From Rhodothermales bacterium (GTDB lineage: Bacteria; Bacteroidota; Rhodothermia; Rhodothermales; VXPQ01), in NCBI GenBank assembly GCA_022825385.1, contig JAJDWX010000037.1, positions 3,748 through 67,747 on the forward strand: 64,000 bases of DNA, written 5' to 3'. The position numbers and the translations under genes were made by a program. The notes beneath the pieces are model-generated. The model was not told the origin of the DNA. It was given only the letters and a program-made list of their open reading frames with translations, and did no database searches. Below are positions 19,620 to 62,850 of the stretch, piece by piece (the first letter of the stretch is position 1; each line of letters starts with the position of its first letter).

Positions 19620-20035
19620 TTGGATAGCCTCCTTACGATGATACCGGGTTTTACAACTTTCATTCCGAGCGCGAGCGCCGGCTTGAAATCTCTTGCGTTG
19701 TGGGTGACTATAGCGTCTGCAAAGCCGTTCAGGGCTACTTCAAGGACCATTTCGTCATCGGCGTCGGACAGCATCGGTCGCACCGTGAACGATATATCCA
19801 CTGGTTCGCACAAGGCTGCGAGCGCATTCATGATGGCTTGGACGTCGTCAAGTCCATGTCCCGTGATCGCCCGCGTTTCCGCACGACTCAGAACCGCCTC
19901 GTATTCCAGAAAAAGGGTTGTCGAACATAGTGGCTTGATTCGCTGATTTGCAACCATCCGAAAGAGTGCGTTGCTTGCGCCTCGACGGCTCCGAAAAGCA
20001 GAGACGATAATATTTGTATCCAGTACCAACCTCAC
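19616..20035 (-). CDS. PIN-domain toxin
   Basis: MRLVLDTNIIVSA at the N-terminus, acidic residues at DDEMVLE, and VTHNARDF. Sequence resembles the PIN-family TA toxin component. Confidence 0.85.
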   Translation of the reverse strand: MRLVLDTNIIVSAFRSRRGASNALFRMVANQRIKPLCSTTLFLEYEAVLSRAETRAITGHGLDDVQAIMNALAALCEPVDISFTVRPMLSDADDEMVLEVALNGFADAIVTHNARDFKPALALGMKVVKPGIIVRRLSK

Positions 20036-20082
20036 GGTTACAAGATAAAAAACATCATATAAGATGTCAAATAAAAAATCTC

Positions 20083-29801: not shown

Positions 29802-30162
29802 CCTATGCCTTGGTGCCTTGCTTGTCAAAGAGGATGGGTTGTAGTCGAGTGTACAGTCGAGAGATGCAAATTCGTGCATGCGCTCAACCCCTACCGCCCG
29901 TCGAGGAAGCGATCCAGCGCGCCCGGTTTTCTTCCCGGACGCCTGTCTGGACACTCTCCGGGACATTCTTTTAGACAAATAAAGGGACATTTCAAGTATA
30001 ATAAATCTTGATTCCCGATAAATTCGGGTTTATATTTACCCCGTACGGGCCGTTTTCGCCAGGTATCGGGCGCTTTTTTGCCTTGCTGCCGAAGCGATAC
30101 GGTTTTTGTCGACTTTTCTGCCCGACAGGGCCGCCATAGCGCATGTACCAGCATTCAATCCC

Positions 30163-31416
30163 ATGTCCAACCGCCGCGAATACGAGCGAACGCATCCCTG
30201 GATCACGTTCCGGCTGGATTTGAACCAGGCGCATCCCCATCTATGGACATTGCTTGGACAGGCCGTGACCTTTTGCAGGCAAGTGTCTCAAGCGGCCCTG
30301 CCCCCGGATATCGCAAAAACGTTCAAGACGCTATACCTCAGCAAGGGCGTTCGGGCGACGACAGCTATCGAGGGGAATACCCTGACAGAAGAACAGGTGC
30401 AGGCCCAGATCGAAGGGACGCTGGATTTGCCTTCCTCGCAGGAATATTTGCAACAGGAGATAGCGAATATTTTGCATGCTTGCGGGGTTATCGAAGCGGC
30501 TATGGACACGGATAATCCGCCCCGGTTGACCGTGGATCTGATCCGGGAATACAATGGGCACGTGCTTGAAGGATTGGGCGAGCATCTTGCCGAAGGCGTG
30601 ATTCCCGGTGAGATTCGCGCGCATTCGGTAGGCGTGGGCAGTTATCGAGCGGCGCCCCCGGAAGATTGTCGCTATCTGCTGGAACGTCTTTGCGGATGGC
30701 TGGAGGAGAAAACCGAGATCCCGTTTTTTGCGGAGGAAGACGATCAACGGGTTGCGACGGGTATTTTGCACGCCATTCTTGTCCACTTGTACATTGCCTG
30801 GATTCACCCCTTCGGCGACGGCAACGGGCGCACGGCGCGGCTCCTGGAGTTTATGGCGCAGGCTCGCGCGGGGGTTCCGTTTCCTTCGGCGCACCTGCTC
30901 AGCGACCACTACAATATGACCCGGACCCAGTACTACCGGGAACTGGACCGGTCAAGCCAGGTCTGCGATGGCGAAGGAGACGCTTTCGGATTCCTGCACT
31001 ACGCCTTGCAAGGGTTTGTAGATGGATTGCAGGCGCAATGCCAAAAAATTCAGGGGTATCAACTTGCGATAGCGTGGGAACACTTTATCTATGGCGTGTT
31101 TGCGAAGCAGAAGCGTTCCAGCGCCATGCAACGCCGGCGGGAACTGGTGCTGGAACTCGGTCGAATATCCGAACCCGTTGCCAAGGCGGAAATACCCTTC
31201 CTAACCCCGGCCTTGGCCCGCGGTTACGCCGGCAAGACACGCAAGACCCTCACCCGGGACCTGAACTGGCTGGGGCAGAAGCGGTTGATTGCGCGGGCGG
31301 GCCGGGCGTATCGCGCCAACATCGGGCTCATGTGGGCATTCGTGCCGCATTTGCAAGCAGATCGATTCGTTACCTTGCTGTCTTCCGCCCGCAGCGAGCG
31401 AGGCGAAAACGAATAA
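30163..31416 (+). CDS. Fic family protein
   Basis: Start at MSNRREY. Canonical Fic motif HPFGDGNGRTAR. Confidence 0.9.
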   Translation: MSNRREYERTHPWITFRLDLNQAHPHLWTLLGQAVTFCRQVSQAALPPDIAKTFKTLYLSKGVRATTAIEGNTLTEEQVQAQIEGTLDLPSSQEYLQQEIANILHACGVIEAAMDTDNPPRLTVDLIREYNGHVLEGLGEHLAEGVIPGEIRAHSVGVGSYRAAPPEDCRYLLERLCGWLEEKTEIPFFAEEDDQRVATGILHAILVHLYIAWIHPFGDGNGRTARLLEFMAQARAGVPFPSAHLLSDHYNMTRTQYYRELDRSSQVCDGEGDAFGFLHYALQGFVDGLQAQCQKIQGYQLAIAWEHFIYGVFAKQKRSSAMQRRRELVLELGRISEPVAKAEIPFLTPALARGYAGKTRKTLTRDLNWLGQKRLIARAGRAYRANIGLMWAFVPHLQADRFVTLLSSARSERGENE

Positions 31417-40195: not shown

Positions 40196-40597
40196 TTACC
40201 AGGCCCCGAGGATGCCGCCCATCACGACGAAGTTCACGGCATGGTATCCTGCATTGATGAAATACAGTTTCATGGATTTCTTCTCGAACAGGTACGAGGT
40301 GCCCATGGCGGCGCATACCCATCCGATTCCGGCAAGCGCGCCGGCGCCCATGCCCCAGTAGAACGTAGCGTCCGGCCCAAGGAACAGGTCCAGGTTGAAG
40401 GCGATGACGAGAGCCAGGAAGAAGGCGGTGCCGTATATAAGCCCCATATCGCCGCTTTGTATGTCTTCTTCGGTAAATTCGTTTTCTTCCATCCAGGCTT
40501 CGCCGAAAAGGATGGGCGAATACCAGAGCATGCCTACGGCGAAGCTGGACAAGGCCGCCACGAGGACGGACAGGTAGTTGATCGAAGAGAAATCCAT
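40196..40597 (-). CDS. DUF1761 membrane protein
   Basis: Start at MDFSSINYL. 133 aa with WYSPILFGEAW. Confidence 0.7.
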   Translation of the reverse strand: MDFSSINYLSVLVAALSSFAVGMLWYSPILFGEAWMEENEFTEEDIQSGDMGLIYGTAFFLALVIAFNLDLFLGPDATFYWGMGAGALAGIGWVCAAMGTSYLFEKKSMKLYFINAGYHAVNFVVMGGILGAW

Positions 40598-40726
40598 GAC
40601 GATACGCAAAGGTCGGGTGGATGAGGGCGGGTTTCGCGTCCGCAAGTTAACGCTTTCTTCATGATTATGGCAAATTTCTTGCGGACGGGCGATACGTTTC
40701 CGGGCGGCGCCCGCCGAGAACGGATG

Positions 40727-40860
40727 CGGCGATTTTATTTGACGCGAAACTGCAATCGGGCCTTTCGGGGACGAGGAAATTGTCTTTAAATATTTGATAT
40801 ATAAATATTTATAGGAAGTAATTTTTATTTGACGGTTATTTGATCGGATGGGGTGTTTTG
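40727..40860. repeat. 134-bp direct repeat, left copy (islet boundary)
   Basis: Matches 44989-45122: identical over the first 24 nt and the last ~41 nt, diverged in the middle. Contains repeated TTATTTGA(C/T) motifs. Confidence 0.9.
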
Positions 40861-40918
40861 TGGAAACAATCCGGCCTGGATTTATGTTATAGAACACAGA
40901 AACCGTGAAACTGTGGCT

Positions 40919-41194
40919 ATGAAAAAGAACATCACCGTATCCATAGACGAGCAGACCTACCGCTGCGCTCGCATCCGGGCGGCGGAACTGGACACATCGG
41001 TTTCCGCCCTGGTGCAGGGGTATTTGAGGAGTTTGGCGCCTGGCGGTACGGTGGATAACGGGCAGACTGTAGCATCGGGGTCCGAACGCCGCCGTCGGAT
41101 GTTGACGGAGGTCATTGAGGACATCCATGTCGCTTCGCCCGATTTCAAGGCCGCCGATAACCTGCCTCGCGAGGAGCTGCACGAGCGGGGGTAG
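40919..41194 (+). CDS. vapB: ribbon-helix-helix (CopG/VapB-like) antitoxin
   Basis: MKKNITVSIDEQTYRCARIRAAELDTSVSALVQGYL; lies upstream of a PIN gene. Confidence 0.7.
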   Translation: MKKNITVSIDEQTYRCARIRAAELDTSVSALVQGYLRSLAPGGTVDNGQTVASGSERRRRMLTEVIEDIHVASPDFKAADNLPREELHERG

Positions 41195-41256
41195 CGTTGG
41201 GGGGCGTGTGTAGTGATATTTGTTGAACGCCAGGATTGCGAATGCGAAGAGGTTTG

Positions 41257-41682
41257 ATGCGCTTTCTTGATACGAATATTCTGATCTATGCGGTCAGTCC
41301 GGCCCCTGACGAAGTCGAAAAGCAGCGTTTGGCTCAGCGGCTGTTGGAAATGGGCGATCTTGCCTTATCCGTCCAGGTACTCCAGGAGTTCTATCATCAG
41401 GTAACGCGTCCCGGCCGTCCTGGAGCGATTACCCAGGACCGTGCGCTACAATTTATCGAGCGTATCGGTCATTTCCCCGTGCAGCATATCACGCTTGACG
41501 TGTTCCGCGAAGCGGTGGCTATCAGCCGCCGTTTTCAACTGTCCTATTGGGACGCCGCGATCCTTGCGGCTGCGCGTATCCTGGGTTGCGATGCAGTGTA
41601 TACCGAAGACTTGAACGCGGGACAGGATTACGGGGGCGTTCGCGCGGTGAATCCGTTCGCGGATTCGGCGGGATTGCGGTAG
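41257..41682 (+). CDS. vapC: PIN-domain toxin VapC
   Basis: MRFLDTNILIYA, VLQEF, SYWDAAILAAA and YTED (PIN acidic residues). Alternative starts at 41236 and 41242. Confidence 0.85.
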   Translation: MRFLDTNILIYAVSPAPDEVEKQRLAQRLLEMGDLALSVQVLQEFYHQVTRPGRPGAITQDRALQFIERIGHFPVQHITLDVFREAVAISRRFQLSYWDAAILAAARILGCDAVYTEDLNAGQDYGGVRAVNPFADSAGLR

Positions 41683-41863
41683 AGGCGTGTGCGCATCGGC
41701 GCCTGTTTACGGATCCTTCCTGTCGGGTCTTTGCAGCATGTCGTCTTGAGAATCTGGAACTTCAGGCATATGGTGAGTTGGAATCGTATCCAGGCTTACA
41801 ATCGCGTTAATCGGGACCTCGGTTACCCGGCCATCGACATCAGAACCCCGGCGGAGATCGATC

Positions 41864-42052
41864 ATGTCCAGGGAGACGAAGAAAAAGAAGTTTGATTGCG
41901 TCCAATACACTCGCGAAGTGCGTACGCAGCTGCAGAAGGAAACTGCACATATGATCGCGGAGGAAAGGGTGGCGTTCTATCGGAACCAGACGTACGCGAA
42001 TCCTGTACTGGCCCGGTTGGCGGCGATGTCGCCGCAACGAAAGGAGCGGTAG
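41864..42052 (+). CDS. small protein, unrecognised family (KFDCV-x-[FY]-x-RE), paralogue 1
   Basis: 62 aa: KKKKFDCVQYTREVRTQLQKETAHMIAEERVAFY. It shares a collinear motif with three other ORFs in this window. Confidence 0.55.
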   Translation: MSRETKKKKFDCVQYTREVRTQLQKETAHMIAEERVAFYRNQTYANPVLARLAAMSPQRKER

Positions 42053-42125
42053 CTCAGCGTCGCCCCGATGCGGGAAGCGTCGGGATTGCATCTATTCACT
42101 TGCCCATTTCCGGAGGCCGTTCGTC

Positions 42126-42308
42126 ATGGCAGAGAAAGCCGAAAAGAAATTCGATTGCGTTCGGTTCATGCGCGAAGCGCGCAGGAGGATTTACGAGGAA
42201 ACAAAGCACATGAGCCACGAGGAATTGAGCGAGTATTACCGGGCGTTTCGCGAAAGCGATCCGCTGTGGAAGCGCTTGAAGGCCCGGGAGAAAGAGCAAG
42301 CGCGGTAG
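42126..42308 (+). CDS. small protein, same family, paralogue 2
   Basis: 60 aa: EKKFDCVRFMREARRRIYEETKHMSHEELSEYY. Confidence 0.55.
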   Translation: MAEKAEKKFDCVRFMREARRRIYEETKHMSHEELSEYYRAFRESDPLWKRLKAREKEQAR

Positions 42309-42334
42309 GTTTCGTTTTCTGGAGATATTCGGGT

Positions 42335-42526
42335 ATGGAAGCCGCAAGCAAATTCGACTGCGTTCAGTTCATGCGCGAGGCATGGGCCCGCATGGACGCG
42401 GAGACCGAAGGCGTGGCCGACGAGGGGCGGGCGTGGTACAAATCAAGAGAATACGCCGATTCCTGGTTGCCGAAAATGTCCGGGCGGATGCGGGGTCAGC
42501 GCGGTGCATTGAGCCAGAAACCATGA
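42335..42526 (+). CDS. small protein, same family, paralogue 3
   Basis: 63 aa starting at MEAASKFDCVQFMREAWARMDAETEGVADEGRAWY. Its stop overlaps the next ATG (ATGA). Confidence 0.55.
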   Translation: MEAASKFDCVQFMREAWARMDAETEGVADEGRAWYKSREYADSWLPKMSGRMRGQRGALSQKP

Positions 42527-42702
42527 GCGAAACGGCAATCATCTTCGAAGTCGCCGGGTCCCCGGATGGCGGATGCGAGGGGCAGGTGCTTGGCCGCGGC
42601 ATGTTTACGCAGGGCGACGATTGGGCTGACCTGAAGAAGATGGCGCGGGATTTACACGTTTTGCTATTTTTACCACTTTCAGTTTGTGCCAAGAAAAGAT
42701 GA
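42523..42702 (+). CDS. HicB-like antitoxin N-terminal domain, probably 3'-truncated
   Basis: MSETAIIFEVAGSPDGGCEGQVLGRGMFTQGDDWADLKKMARD resembles the HicB-like fold pattern (IFEV..PDGGY..ALG.GI.TQGD). The tail (LHVLLFLPLSVCAKKR) coincides with a drop in GC. Confidence 0.45.
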   Translation: MSETAIIFEVAGSPDGGCEGQVLGRGMFTQGDDWADLKKMARDLHVLLFLPLSVCAKKR

Positions 42703-42723
42703 GATTCTCACGAGCATAATCCA

Positions 42724-44958
42724 ATGAAAGACGCCCAGAAACCAGACCATGTCAGTTTGACGACGCTTATCGAACGCCTTCGCGAGGGCCGCTTCGTTAT
42801 CCCGGATTTCCAGCGCGATTTTGAGTGGAAGCCATGGGATATCCGTGATCTAGTCCGGTCGATTTTTCTCGACTACTACATCGGCAGTCTGCTCCTGTGG
42901 AAGGGCAAGTCAGAGAACTTTGCCGCGCTTTCCTGCGAGGCTATTTACGGCTACCCCGATCCCGACGACGGTGATCCCGTGCACATCGTTCTGGATGGTC
43001 AGCAGCGCCTGACTGCGATGCACTATGTTTTCCTTGCGCCGGACAAGCCGCTCCCTAATCGCTCGAACCGCTTCCTCTATTTCATTCATGTTGATCGCTT
43101 CATGGAGGAGGCTTATGACGAGGCATTCATGTATGATTGGACCCAGAGAGGCGTGAATCTTCTCGCGGATCCGAGTGCGCAGTTCGAGAATCACCTGTTC
43201 CCCGTCTCGGTCGTTGGACAAGGCGGCTGGGAACTTCCGAACTGGGTCCAAGGCTACGAGAAGTACTGGCGTGACAAGAAGAAGGCCGCTCAAGCGGACG
43301 GCGACGAAGGAGCGGCACAAGAGGCGGAACGGCGTAGAAGCGATGCCGACGCTTTCGGACAGCACCTCAAGACCATTACCGAGCAATACCAAATCTCCTA
43401 CATCGAGCTAGACCGCAACCTCTATATTGACAAGGTCTGTGATATTTTCACCCAGATAAACAGCCGTGGGATTCGCCTTGATGTCTTCGATCTCGTCAAC
43501 GCGATGCTGAAACCGAAGGGCCTTCAACTCAAGCATCTATGGCGCGAGGCTGCACCGCGCCTTGATTTCGTTGATACCGAGCGGATGAATGTCTACCTGC
43601 TTCAGGTGATGTCCATCCTGCGTCAGGCCTATTGCTCGCCCAAATATCTCTATTACCTGCTTCCCGGACAAGAGAAAAAAGTACGTGAGCCGGATGGCTC
43701 GTTGCGAAGAGAAATATTGGTTCCTGATGTTTCGGAATTTGAACGGCGTTGGAATGCGGCCGTTGAGGCGGTTGAAAGTGCGATCAAGTTGCTGCGTCAT
43801 CCGCAGGAGTTCGGCGCCATTTCGTCCCAATACCTCCCGTACGTTTCGATTCTTCCTGCGTTCGCGGCGCTTCAGACAGTCCTTGGTGAACTTCCTCCAC
43901 CCCGCCAACTCGATGCCCAGCGCAAGTTGCGTCATTGGTACTGGGCCAGCGTATTCACCAATCGCTACTCCGGTTCGGTAGAGTCTACCAGTGCCCGCGA
44001 CTACCTTGACGTAAAGGCTTGGTTCGACGATGATGCTGCGGTGCCGGGCCTGATTGCGGAATTCCGGGCGCGCTTCAAGAATTTGGACCTACGCCGGGAA
44101 ACCAAGCGCGGCACTTCTGTCTACAACGGTATCTTCAATCTACTCGTGCTGCACGGCGCACGTGACTGGATGACCGGCAATGTTTCCCAGTACGACGATC
44201 TTGATGATCACCACATTGTTCCTAAAAATTGGGGGAAGGAGAACGGCCTCCACGGGAACATTGATACGATCCTAAACCGTACTCCGCTCAGTGCTGACAC
44301 CAATCGCAACGTCATTCGCGAGCGCCTGCCGAATGAGTACCTGCCCGAGTTGATGTCGGCCAGTGGCGAATCCAGCGTTCGGGCCACCTTGGAATCACAT
44401 TTCATTTCTCCTGCGGCAATTGAGATATTGTTAGCCGACCCATTCACGAAGAATGACTTTGAGTCCTTTCTTGCGGAGCGGCAACGTACGCTCCAGAATG
44501 CAATTGAAGACTTGCTGGTAAAGGAACGGCTAGACCTCCCACCCCAATTGCGTGAACTGGATGCAAATATCGAGAAGGTCGAGCTTGTTTTGCGTTGCGC
44601 CATTGACGAGACACTGGACGGAGATCCCTCTCAGCTCCCGCACCATGTACGGCAAAAGATTGGGGAGCGATTGCAGATTGCTGCGAGGAAGAATGCCGCA
44701 CTCGACGGCGAGCACTACGAGTCGCTCGGGGGCAAACTTGAGTATGCCGACCTGCGTGAGTTGCAGGACACGATCACAAATAAGGGACTTTGGCATCGCT
44801 TTGAAGGGCGCTTCGCAAATAAAGAGGTGCTTGCAAGGCGATTCGGACAGCTCGCAGATATTCGGAACGGTATCCGCCACAGCCGCAGCGTGGACGAGAT
44901 CACGCGGAAGGAAGGCGAAGCGGCAATCCTGTGGTTTGAGCAGGTCACCGGAACATGA
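42724..44958 (+). CDS. DUF262-DUF1524 (GmrSD-like) nuclease fused to a C-terminal Swt1-like HEPN domain
   Basis: N-terminus has IPDFQRDFEWK and VLDGQQRLTA (DUF262). The middle has DDHHIVPKNWG ... ILNRTPLSADTNRN (DUF1524 His-Me finger). The C-terminus has LADIRNGIRHSRSV (Rx4H) followed by GEAAILWF. Confidence 0.85.
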   Translation: MKDAQKPDHVSLTTLIERLREGRFVIPDFQRDFEWKPWDIRDLVRSIFLDYYIGSLLLWKGKSENFAALSCEAIYGYPDPDDGDPVHIVLDGQQRLTAMHYVFLAPDKPLPNRSNRFLYFIHVDRFMEEAYDEAFMYDWTQRGVNLLADPSAQFENHLFPVSVVGQGGWELPNWVQGYEKYWRDKKKAAQADGDEGAAQEAERRRSDADAFGQHLKTITEQYQISYIELDRNLYIDKVCDIFTQINSRGIRLDVFDLVNAMLKPKGLQLKHLWREAAPRLDFVDTERMNVYLLQVMSILRQAYCSPKYLYYLLPGQEKKVREPDGSLRREILVPDVSEFERRWNAAVEAVESAIKLLRHPQEFGAISSQYLPYVSILPAFAALQTVLGELPPPRQLDAQRKLRHWYWASVFTNRYSGSVESTSARDYLDVKAWFDDDAAVPGLIAEFRARFKNLDLRRETKRGTSVYNGIFNLLVLHGARDWMTGNVSQYDDLDDHHIVPKNWGKENGLHGNIDTILNRTPLSADTNRNVIRERLPNEYLPELMSASGESSVRATLESHFISPAAIEILLADPFTKNDFESFLAERQRTLQNAIEDLLVKERLDLPPQLRELDANIEKVELVLRCAIDETLDGDPSQLPHHVRQKIGERLQIAARKNAALDGEHYESLGGKLEYADLRELQDTITNKGLWHRFEGRFANKEVLARRFGQLADIRNGIRHSRSVDEITRKEGEAAILWFEQVTGT

Positions 44959-44988
44959 TCGCTGGGCTAAATTTCCACACGGTTTTAT

Positions 44989-45122
44989 CGGCGATTTTAT
45001 TTGACGCGAAACGGCCGTCGGGCCTTTCGGGGATGGGAAAATTATTCTTAAACATCTGATATATAAATACTTAAATGAAGAAATTTTTATTTGACGGTTA
45101 TTTGATCGGATGGGGTGTTTTG
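44989..45122. repeat. 134-bp direct repeat, right copy (islet boundary)
   Basis: See 40727-40860. Confidence 0.9.
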
Positions 45123-45307
45123 GGGTCATAGCAAGGGTGTTCGCAGCACATGGCTATCGCCAGTCCGGGCACGAAAGCCGCAACAAATCCGATTGCAATC
45201 GGTTCATGCTTGAGGCCCGGGGCCGTATCGATGCGGCGACTGCGGGCATGACCGACGAGGAGCGGTTGGCGTGGTACAGTTCCAGGAAATACACCGAAGT
45301 CCCGTGA
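45110..45307 (+). CDS. small protein, same KFDCV-like family, paralogue 4 (diverged)
   Basis: NKSDCNRFMLEARGRIDAATAGMTDEERLAWY is collinear with paralogues 1-3. The start is uncertain (ATG 45110 lies inside the repeat; GTG 45137 is an alternative). Its stop overlaps the GTG of the next gene. Confidence 0.45.
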   Translation: MGCFGVIARVFAAHGYRQSGHESRNKSDCNRFMLEARGRIDAATAGMTDEERLAWYSSRKYTEVP

Positions 45308-45762
45308 AAATCTATACGCTCGAAACCACGGAGATATTGCCCGTTTCGCTGGAAGAATCCTGGGCATTCTTTTCCAATCCGCATAATCTGCCGAAGATTA
45401 CCCCGCCGCGGCTCAACATGCGGATCACGTCCGGGGCGGACGGGGAAATATATCCCGGCATGATCATCGCATACTCCGTAACCCCTCTTCCGCCTTTCAG
45501 GACCGGTTGGGTTACGGAAATAACCGCCGTGGATACGCTGCGGTATTTCGTGGACGAGCAGCGATTCGGGCCCTACAAATTCTGGCATCACAAGCATTTC
45601 TTCGCCGATGCGGGGGAGAAAACGGAAGTGCGGGACCGGGTGCACTATGCCTTGCCGTTCGATCCGTTCGGCAGGCTGGCCCACCCGCTGTTCGTGCGAC
45701 GACAACTGGACGCGATTTTCAAGTACCGCAGCGCGCAGTTGCGGTCCTTGTTCGGGGATTGA
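45304..45762 (+). CDS. SRPBCC ligand-binding domain protein
   Basis: GTG start with a GTGA overlap. IYTLETTEILPVSLEESWAFFSNPHNLPKITP and FGPYKFWHHKHFF are typical of this family. Confidence 0.8.
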   Translation: MKIYTLETTEILPVSLEESWAFFSNPHNLPKITPPRLNMRITSGADGEIYPGMIIAYSVTPLPPFRTGWVTEITAVDTLRYFVDEQRFGPYKFWHHKHFFADAGEKTEVRDRVHYALPFDPFGRLAHPLFVRRQLDAIFKYRSAQLRSLFGD

Positions 45763-47359: not shown

Positions 47360-47427
47360 GTTTATCGGGATGCCGAGGGACAAAATCTAAACAACCCAGA
47401 CCATTGATCTACCCAATCAAACTACCG

Positions 47428-47501
47428 TGGCGCGGGAGAGACTCGAACTCTCGACCTTACGATTATGAGTCGTACGCTCTAACCTGCTGAGCTACCGCGC
47501 C
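47428..47501 (-). tRNA. tRNA-Met (anticodon CAT), elongator-type; tRNA-Ile2 (lysidine) not excluded
   Basis: The reverse complement folds as a 74-nt cloverleaf: acceptor GGCGCGG/CCGCGCC, D arm GCTC/GAGC, anticodon stem TACGA/TCGTA with loop CTCATAA, T arm GAGAG-TTCGAGT-CTCTC. CCA is not encoded. Confidence 0.9.
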
Positions 47502-62691: not shown

Positions 62692-62821
62692 GGCGTTTCG
62701 ATATGGATGACGGGTCGCTCCAAATATAGGGACGGGAGTTGGAACGATGGGAGCCGGGCGGGAGGTTTGCGGGGGATATGGTTGTCAAAAAAGATAGAAA
62801 TAAATTCATAAAATCCATTAT

Positions 62822-62850
62822 TTGACATTTTTAGATTTATTTTGTATCAT
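62822..62850 (+). promoter_or_regulatory. near-consensus sigma70 promoter TTGACA-17-TATCAT
   Basis: Followed by AGGAGG (62853-62858) and a GTG at 62869. Confidence 0.55.

Follow-up and report, generated by a model that had tools for sequence, protein, structure and literature searches.

How type I restriction-modification (R-M) systems and the defense genes embedded in them are regulated is little known, and RptR, described in 2025, is among the few examples. WYL-domain regulators of the BrxR/CapW kind travel with diverse defense systems across phyla and recognize inverted repeats located 5' of the regulator gene. RptR, a small helix-turn-helix (HTH) repressor of 79 amino acids (aa) that controls type I R-M defense islands, binds direct repeats at the promoter of the island, is encoded first in its operon in Gammaproteobacteria, and has as its site the palindrome TAGCTA in 9-bp repeats; its authors hold the hsdS-hsdR interval to be a recombination hotspot (PMC12255303). 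Embedded cargo is exemplified by PrrC, which lies within the EcoprrI type I R-M system (PMC12707154). The locus analyzed here belongs to a Rhodothermales bacterium and lies in a stretch of 64,000 nucleotides (nt), hereafter the window (contig JAJDWX010000037.1, positions 3,748 to 67,747), in which two direct repeats enclose 4.3 kb of accessory genes. Each repeat is part of a longer unit, the module, which is probably the reused tail and control region of a gene from a defense hotspot, its copies being leftover leaders and not the ends of an element. The gene, labeled albA here, encodes a protein with AlbA_2, HATPase_c_4 and winged-helix domains, a homologue of which is called 'MloB' in one GenBank record.

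As with RptR, the putative regulator is genetically linked to type I R-M loci that house other defense genes, and a site made of several short direct repeats is conserved across many genomes. Unlike RptR, the candidate binder is a protein of 490-580 aa with an AlbA_2/HATPase_c_4/winged HTH architecture, and its putative sites are TTTGAY iterons phased by 11 bp that follow the gene and occur in at least six phyla. By inspection, TAGCTA, TAGATA and TATCTA were absent from the module; TATATA, a degenerate variant listed as permissive (PMC12255303), is present in its AT-rich spacer, as expected in AT-rich DNA. The first gene of the islet matches DUF6364 and not an HTH family, no direct comparison with RptR having been run.

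Defense cargo inside hsd operons, known from PrrC in EcoprrI and from DarTG2 in the island of enteropathogenic Escherichia coli, was likewise found here, with a cyclic-oligonucleotide-based antiphage signaling system (CBASS) at locus L009 and GmrSD at L010 and in the window. Unlike the PrrC and DarTG2 loci, a portable noncoding module marks the cassette starts, and the window allele is without R-M genes. The co-oriented cassettes split by a recurring noncoding element of 60-170 nt recall integron arrays only superficially; the locus differs from these in having no integrase or tyrosine recombinase, in its near-identical direct copies with phased repeats and a gene relic where attC sites are imperfect palindromes that vary in sequence, and in its unfixed boundaries. 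No attC-type hairpin was apparent, the left copy folding no better than its shuffles (RNA parameters only). Both the BrxR/CapW regulators and the albA-type candidates accompany defense loci across phyla, and their protein architecture differs.

The repeat and its albA-derived tail

Within the window the repeat occurs in two copies only, at 40727-40863 and 44989-45125, which are 137 nt long, align without gaps at 88% identity and lie 4262 nt apart from start to start. The opening 24 nt (CGGCGATTTTATTTGACGCGAAAC) and the 41-nt 3' block (AATTTTTATTTGACGGTTATTTGATCGGATGGGGTGTTTTG) are the same in both, in good agreement with the initial annotation, which had described direct repeats of 134 bp with about 85% identity, identical ends of 24 and ~41 nt and several short motifs in each. 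A 39-nt core had two exact matches in the window against zero expected, and TTATTTGAY, present three times in each copy, was found eight times in the whole window against 0.57 expected. When aligned with copies from relatives, the left copy reaches further left, to 40697.

From the repeat alignment, the motif scan and the comparison with relatives, module copy L was delimited at 40697..40863 (+). It begins with a relic of the albA 3' end, FRAAPAENGCGDFI and a stop codon (40698-40742, +), the TGA falling within the first iteron TTATTTGAC (40735-40743, +), continues with an AT-rich spacer (+) bearing TGATATATAAAT at about 40795-40807, and is completed by the tandem iterons TTATTTGACGG and TTATTTGATCGG (40825-40846, +, starting at 40825 and 40836). 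Copy R (44959..45125, +, with strong homology from 44989 onward) has an albA relic, RWAKFPHGFIGDFI and a stop codon (44962-45003, +), more diverged than that of copy L, and iterons at 44997-45005 and 45087-45108 (+; starts of the second set at 45087 and 45098). The layout is thus an albA-tail relic, TTATTTGAC, an AT-rich spacer of ~80 nt and tandem TTATTTGACGGTTATTTGAT, of which TTATTTGACGG and TTATTTGATCGG are two iterons phased by 11 bp; the first set is a single iteron in the window copies. Two iteron sets 60-115 nt apart with 11-bp phasing are present in both window copies, and no inverted repeats were reported within the modules.

The derivation from albA was seen in relatives, which are Rhodothermales metagenome-assembled genomes (MAGs); all data for this comparison are metagenome assemblies from one set of lake metagenomes. 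In L012, albA encodes 551 aa with SLFN_AlbA_2 and HATPase_c_4 domains and a C-terminal winged helix. In L009, L012 and L145, one module copy runs on from the 3' end of an intact albA terminus (..FWATPAENGYGDFI and stop). The intact protein ends in ...LPFWATPAENGYGDFI, and its stop codon lies inside the first TTATTTGAC. Every other copy opens with a dead relic of the albA end, which measures 14 codons in the left copy of the window, 19 in L138 and 43 in the second copy of L005. In a tblastn search, residues 538-551 of the L012 AlbA_2 protein matched 40698-40739 of the window at 79% identity. Judged by its sequence, the 137-167-nt repeat is an albA tail joined to the control region downstream of it.

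An alignment of 14 copies, 12 of them distinct, varied in 79 of 169 columns (47%) and contained two blocks, ATTTTTATTTGACGGTTATTTGATCGGA (28 nt) and CGGCGATTTTATTTG (15 nt), that were invariant across all the distinct copies. Invariance over 28 nt by chance would have a probability of (0.53)^28, or ~2e-8 per start, an indicative figure only that assumes independent columns in copies that are related. The iterons of the module are under strong sequence constraint. Neutral debris of a segmental duplication of the albA 3' end, functionless since, would also contain a dead gene relic and would vary in copy number and flanks as these copies do. Such debris is nevertheless an unlikely source, given the 28-nt block kept despite the variable columns, the last 15 nt of the relic, invariant though the reading frame is dead, and the 20-21-mer kept across phyla beside proteins that are ~48% identical.

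The module precedes different operons on the same strand, beginning with vapB, hsdM, albA or the small gene s65, and it behaves in this respect as the reused leader that had been suggested for it. Two module types flank albA, and the copies have a mosaic make-up drawn from both. In the left copy of the window, the flank on the upstream side is that of the first type and the flank on the downstream side that of the second, as recombination between copies, removing albA, would leave. That recombination at the module shaped the locus, as also proposed at the outset, is borne out by the mosaic copies and by albA, which lies between two copies in some relatives and is absent from others. A self-mobile albA cassette flanked by its own motif was considered and dropped, because the relics differ in length and, for most albA genes, the motif is present on the downstream side alone.

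Since the module stands ahead of the vapB-like gene in the window, L005, L012, L138, L140 and L145, it might be the operator through which the VapB antitoxin encoded next regulates its own expression. This is very unlikely, because the same module stands ahead of hsdM, albA and s65, and outside the lineage the motif accompanies albA or hsd genes and not vapB. A structured RNA leader or small RNA is more doubtful still. Its position in the 5' leader and the right copy, which folds somewhat better than shuffles (z -2.15), would suit it, but the left copy does not (z -0.31), the predicted folds of the two copies differ, no Rfam match was obtained at the gathering threshold or at E ≤ 1, and the conserved parts are phased direct repeats and not paired arms.

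By eye, TGATATATAAAT resembles an extended -10 element. No -10 was found inside the module at 16-18 nt after any of the three TTGAY boxes. The reading of TTATTTGAC as a Bacteroidetes-type -33/-7 promoter was rejected, the spacings being wrong. The only other TTATTTGAC copies in the window, 20066-20074 (-) and 62818-62826 (+), both lie in AT-rich intergenic DNA and read TTGACA-17 nt-TATCTT and TTGACA-17 nt-TATCAT, respectively; from these hexamers they are probably sigma-70-type promoters of the ordinary kind. The 9-mer TTATTTGAC is also similar, in this genome, to a -35 box with a T-rich upstream part.

The iterons beyond Rhodothermales

One genome per species was scanned for the invariant 21-mer. 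In the species-representative Rhodothermales MAG it was present at this locus only, which does not agree with a common dispersed intergenic element, the second of the outcomes that had been named as telling against an inserted islet. Exact matches elsewhere were found in MAGs of Longimicrobium, Isosphaeraceae, Desulfobacteraceae, Desulfococcus and Chryseolinea, compared to ~0.3 chance matches by a rough estimate that assumes equal base frequencies. A 20-mer with two Y positions was found in >120 metagenome contigs among the matches listed, and the 20-21-mer is present in five other phyla altogether. The motif lies 4-18 nt past the stop codon of an AlbA_2/HATPase_c_4 gene whose product ends in ..Y.P(F/Y/W)WA, recurs ~70-115 nt further on, and is often located 1-30 nt ahead of the start of hsdR, hsdS or albA. 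Among the matches listed, albA or hsd genes were within 300 nt of the motif at 60 of 126 loci, all motif-gene adjacencies with albA or hsd were co-oriented (84/84), and the motif was 3' of albA in 37 loci and 5' in 10. The AlbA_2 proteins adjoining it have a median identity of only 48%, and recent transfer of one locus is therefore not the explanation.

This motif-selected sample was complemented by eight plasmid albA genes picked on protein similarity alone, one of them annotated 'MloB'. Pairs of the form TTGAY-N6-TTGAY were found within 330 nt downstream of six of the eight, in four of these six as two iteron sets ~80 nt apart, and no other such pair was present on either strand of the respective 7-11-kb loci. 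Of the remaining two genes, that of Acidovorax, which lies immediately ahead of hsdR, has another kind of direct repeat arranged in the same way, and the other has none. By lineage, the iteron reads TTATTTGAY, GTTTTGATC or TTGTTTGAC. In L010, a divergent AlbA_2/HATPase_c_4 gene with another C terminus is followed at 19700-19790 by an unrelated 22-nt tandem repeat, two units of TTTCGGCACAATTTA(A/G).C.TAA, which fits putative protein-specific iterons.

Several contigs carry further signals. A 136-nt unit is repeated three times in tandem in L128 (7866-8223; also in L106) and consists of a double iteron, a spacer with TGATTATCA, a double iteron and the relic KYIPWWA with its stop codon; the albA trailer would evidently be able to amplify. 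A perfect DnaA-box-like sequence, TTATCCACA, lies between the iteron sets in the Bacteroidota-like contigs L017, L018, L019, L050, L059 and L101, and the palindrome TGATwATCA is found ~10 nt ahead of the second iteron set in many other contigs.

The GHKL-type albA protein might instead use the iterons for loading or maintenance, as at a centromere, an origin or a clamp-loading site, or the iterons might be the target of some other conserved factor. Consistent with this are iterons that follow the gene without obvious downstream cargo, sometimes beside plasmid parAB or rep, the TTATCCACA copies in several Bacteroidota-like contigs and the tandem units of L128. It is an improbable account all the same, as in type I R-M loci the start codon of the next gene directly adjoins the second iteron set, which is where an operator classically lies, the Rhodothermales locus has no genes for replication or partition nearby, and the element is chromosomal and confined to a single locus. 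A control region carried behind albA is the reading that we prefer for these iterons.

In the literature, within limited coverage, no description of albA iterons was found, including under 'MloB', under AlbA_2/HATPase_c_4 with type I R-M and in the EcoSal review; a full-text search for the motif strings yielded primer and barcode noise only. In other phyla, type I R-M operons have a Fic gene of the 'mloA' type as the immediate upstream neighbor of albA (L014). A preprint on SoFic (mloA) reports binding to its own upstream 100 bp, and no link to the iterons could be made. In the window, a Fic-domain gene of 436 aa (30106-31416, +) lies ~10 kb left of the hotspot and is kept in all relatives.

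Alleles and genes of the defense hotspot

The interval between the DUF1761 and SRPBCC-like genes (~40598-45303) is a hypervariable chromosomal defense hotspot of a Rhodothermales population. Alleles from other samples were collected through near-identical small open reading frames (ORFs) and through proteins that cluster with those of the DUF1761 and SRPBCC genes; one relative, L138, is a complete genome of 3.07 Mb, of which 20 kb were compared. In the seven alleles the flanks are 93-99% identical, the interval differs in content, and the module is present in one or two copies. With R denoting the module and s62, s60, s63, s65, s68 and s83 small genes, the window allele reads R-vapB-vapC-hsdM remnant-s62-s60-s63-59-aa ORF-GmrSD-R-s65. 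The L005/L006 allele reads R-vapB-R-hsdM-s62-s60-hsdS-DUF6978-DUF1828-hsdR followed by SRPBCC, with type I R-M intact in L005, and that of L009 reads R-albA (internally deleted)-R-hsdM-s62-s60-s83-hsdS-patatin-CD-NTase-...-DUF1828-hsdR. The L012/L145 alleles begin R-albA-R-vapB'-PIN'-..., continuing in L145 with ...-transposase fragment-...-DUF4411-SRPBCC. L138 has R-vapB-vapC only, then SRPBCC; L139 has R-hsdM-s62-s60..., and L140 has R-vapB-PIN-hsdM remnant-s62-s60.... The cargo is rich in known defense families, namely, GmrSD_N, PIN, type I R-M, patatin with CD-NTase (CBASS, in L009), DUF4411 and NERD. With conserved flanks and variable defense cargo, this remains the most defense-island-like part of the window, as initially judged. 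The arrangement hsdM-s68-GmrSD in L010 is comparable to that of the window.

The window islet is a decayed type I R-M locus in which an embedded GmrSD gene has been kept, because it holds the last 58 codons of hsdM and small ORFs that elsewhere lie between hsdM and hsdS. The remnant (41722..41892, +) matched residues 760-817 of the L005 HsdM protein by tblastn (84% identity, E 8e-25). Its overlap with the s62 start is exactly that of the intact hsdM gene in L005, and the DNA from 41751 to 42423 is 95% identical to L005 6000-6677. An intact type I R-M system was not found in the window, where hsdS and hsdR had no matches and hsdM left the 58-codon remnant alone. Members of the s62 family sit between hsdM and hsdS in relatives.

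A further possibility, raised in the initial annotation, was that the repeats are attL and attR of a 4.3-kb element moved by a site-specific recombinase encoded elsewhere. The direct repeats, the accessory genes that alone lie between them and the lower G+C inside (0.43-0.58 between the repeats versus 0.60-0.69 outside, in line with the lower G+C described earlier) favor it, as does a De Bruijn contig of 4281 nt, exactly one period, which a circle would also give. The evidence from the relatives is against it to a degree that makes it highly improbable. The repeats are just 88% identical, and the 5' edge of their homology is not fixed, the relics measuring 14, 19 and 43 codons. L138 is without window positions 41675-45267, and this indel ends at 41674/45268, that is, at the vapC stop codon and inside s65, away from the repeats. 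An empty site, DUF1761-R-s65-SRPBCC, which the initial annotation had proposed to look for, was found in none of the seven alleles (0/7), and excision at the repeats was not seen in any of them. Of the genes called in the 22-kb surroundings, which reach 10 kb to either side, none had a recombinase or integrase Pfam family, and no recombinase domain was found in the islet ORFs, so the islet lacks a recombinase as originally stated. Across five phyla, the module forms part of a gene together with the DNA 3' of it. In relatives, two copies enclose vapB alone (L005) or albA (L012 and L145); unrelated core genes between both repeats had been named as the first outcome against an inserted islet, and other genes are indeed enclosed, but they are accessory and not core.

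Assemblies from several samples (L141-L144; L002/L004) end in or beside the module, which fits population heterogeneity at the site and equally assembly breaks at the repeat. Between the SRPBCC gene and an SSF transporter gene, a NERD/AAA_19 gene is present in some alleles (L138, 10575-12248; L145, 10575-12227), and the window has only 184 nt there; therefore, the hotspot has another variable spot, of smaller size, immediately to its right. The sole RNA gene in the window is that of tRNA-Met (47427-47501), 2.3 kb away.

On the left, the hotspot is bordered by the conserved DUF1761 gene (40196..40597, -; PF08570, E 1.9e-29), which adjoins the module in every allele. The vapB-like small gene of 91 aa (40919..41194, +) had a DUF6364 match only (E 1.5e-5, under the Pfam cut-off); in the window, as in L138 and L140, a PIN gene comes next. 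The PIN/VapC toxin gene (41236..41682, +; PF01850, E 5.4e-15; public gene call from 41257, 141 aa) has this 91-aa gene 42-62 nt upstream, the arrangement of a VapBC pair, with the antitoxin match below cut-off.

Three small paralogues follow in tandem (41864..42526, +): s62 (41864-42052), s60 (42126-42308) and s63 (42335-42526). Together with the fourth, s65 (45110..45307, +), they are 31-40% identical and share an invariant D-C...E...Y. The s62 family (60-68 aa, conserved K.DC..F.RE...) is rare, with 41 clusters among 5.8 billion proteins, and had no Pfam, NCBIfam or PADLOC match. Its first copy overlaps the hsdM stop codon by ~32 nt, and its sites are 41864-42526 and 45110-45307 in the window, 6113-6557 in L005, 4258-4979 in L009 and 10001-10207 in L010. 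The annotated ATG of s65 lies within module R, and the gene is part of the variable region; it is missing from L005, L138 and L145, where 16-36 nt of its 3' end remain. A 59-aa ORF (42523..42702, +), earlier called HicB-like, shares a DNA match of 40-76 nt with the region upstream of hsdS in L005 and L009, and had no Pfam, NCBIfam, PADLOC or PDB match.

The GmrSD-family (DUF262) protein of 744 aa (42724..44958, +) has a GmrSD_N domain (PF03235, E 2.9e-30, residues 14-262) and matched PADLOC PDC-M55C, HEC-05 and HEC-06, with a weak PDC-M34B match at residues 640-725. Its C-terminal part (residues 301-744), where a GmrSD enzyme would have the His-Me nuclease domain GmrSD_C (DUF1524), had no Pfam match even at E ≤ 5 and no PDB sequence match; a DHHIVP...N...N string in this extension and an R-x4-H string, RNGIRH, near the C terminus were noted by eye only. 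The right flank is the conserved SRPBCC-like gene (45304..45762, +; GTG start at 45304; weak Polyketide_cyc, E 4e-4), whose start is overlapped by the s65 stop (GTGA) and which was found in all alleles that extend to the right side. The gene labels given at first thus stood for VapC/PIN, GmrSD, the small paralogues and DUF1761; SRPBCC was weak and vapB below cut-off, and neither HicB-like nor HEPN was confirmed by Pfam, PADLOC or PDB. The initial annotation did not include the gene relic in the repeat, the decayed type I R-M locus, the right edge at the SRPBCC start or the cross-phylum motif.

Putative control by albA-type proteins

The older state of the locus is probably a type I R-M operon with an AlbA_2/HATPase_c_4/winged-helix gene, as is still present in relatives. 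From there, the module would have been copied or retained ahead of whichever operon follows, be it albA, vapB, hsdM or s65. Its spacer may act as a promoter with TGATATATAAAT as an extended -10 element, other AT-rich promoters of the host looking sigma-70-like, and the flanking iterons would be bound by the winged helix that the albA-type protein carries, an arrangement by which the downstream defense genes could be wired to that protein. We infer that the iterons are the operator of the albA protein; its putative control of the downstream genes rests on co-occurrence, co-orientation and the covariation of helix and iteron. Module copies would moreover provide 40-170 nt of homology, through which homologous recombination and gene conversion may delete albA and swap cassettes. 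The window allele would have arisen by decay, in which albA was reduced to 14 codons and hsdM to 58, hsdS and hsdR were lost, and vapBC, the small ORFs that elsewhere lie next to hsdM and the embedded GmrSD gene were retained; its modules might then be constitutive leaders or be controlled in trans. The order of these events is a reconstruction.

Several observations weigh against this account. The window has no albA gene, so a binder would have to be encoded at another place in the genome, if there is one at all. The scan for sigma-70 promoters and terminators detected nothing in either module and no excess overall, leaving no two-hexamer promoter. A single-crossover origin of the left copy was dropped in favor of the mosaic, as there is no single clean crossover. 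The junction of the right module with s65 is documented by one metagenome scaffold, that of the window (KELL22-1 SAMN22237330 scaffold_266). Logan contigs assembled from the same run are interrupted within the identical 41-nt block, and by these contigs alone a linear insert and a circle with an empty site are indistinguishable. The iteron class follows residues of the putative recognition helix in a sample of 12 confounded by phylogeny. The operon that follows the motif in L017 has an albA with another C terminus, and iterons of plasmid albA genes are kept without an obvious defense gene after them, which equally fits a role for albA itself.

To our knowledge, 'MloB'-like proteins have so far been annotated just as 'ATP-binding' or 'RNA-binding domain'. 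A wider proposal, put forward tentatively, is that these AlbA_2/HATPase_c_4/winged-helix proteins could be widespread, undescribed controllers of defense loci that read 11-bp-phased TTTGAY iterons on either side of a promoter downstream of their own gene. The gene tail plus operator might then be a portable plug able to control any downstream cassette (hsdR, hsdS, vapBC or other defense genes) and to supply homology for shuffling.

The seven alleles from the lake metagenomes illustrate how a hotspot turns over by decay, deletion and recombination at a reused leader and not by a dedicated mobile element. As a defense hotspot the locus is ordinary; the cross-phylum iteron module after albA is its noteworthy part. 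Beside RptR, albA with its iterons would be a second and much more widely distributed candidate regulator of type I R-M and embedded defense genes, in which a large Schlafen-like/GHKL/winged-helix protein is accompanied by a very strongly conserved DNA signal after its gene. The 20-mer, kept in at least six phyla beside ~48%-identical proteins, thereby offers a testable pair of protein and site.

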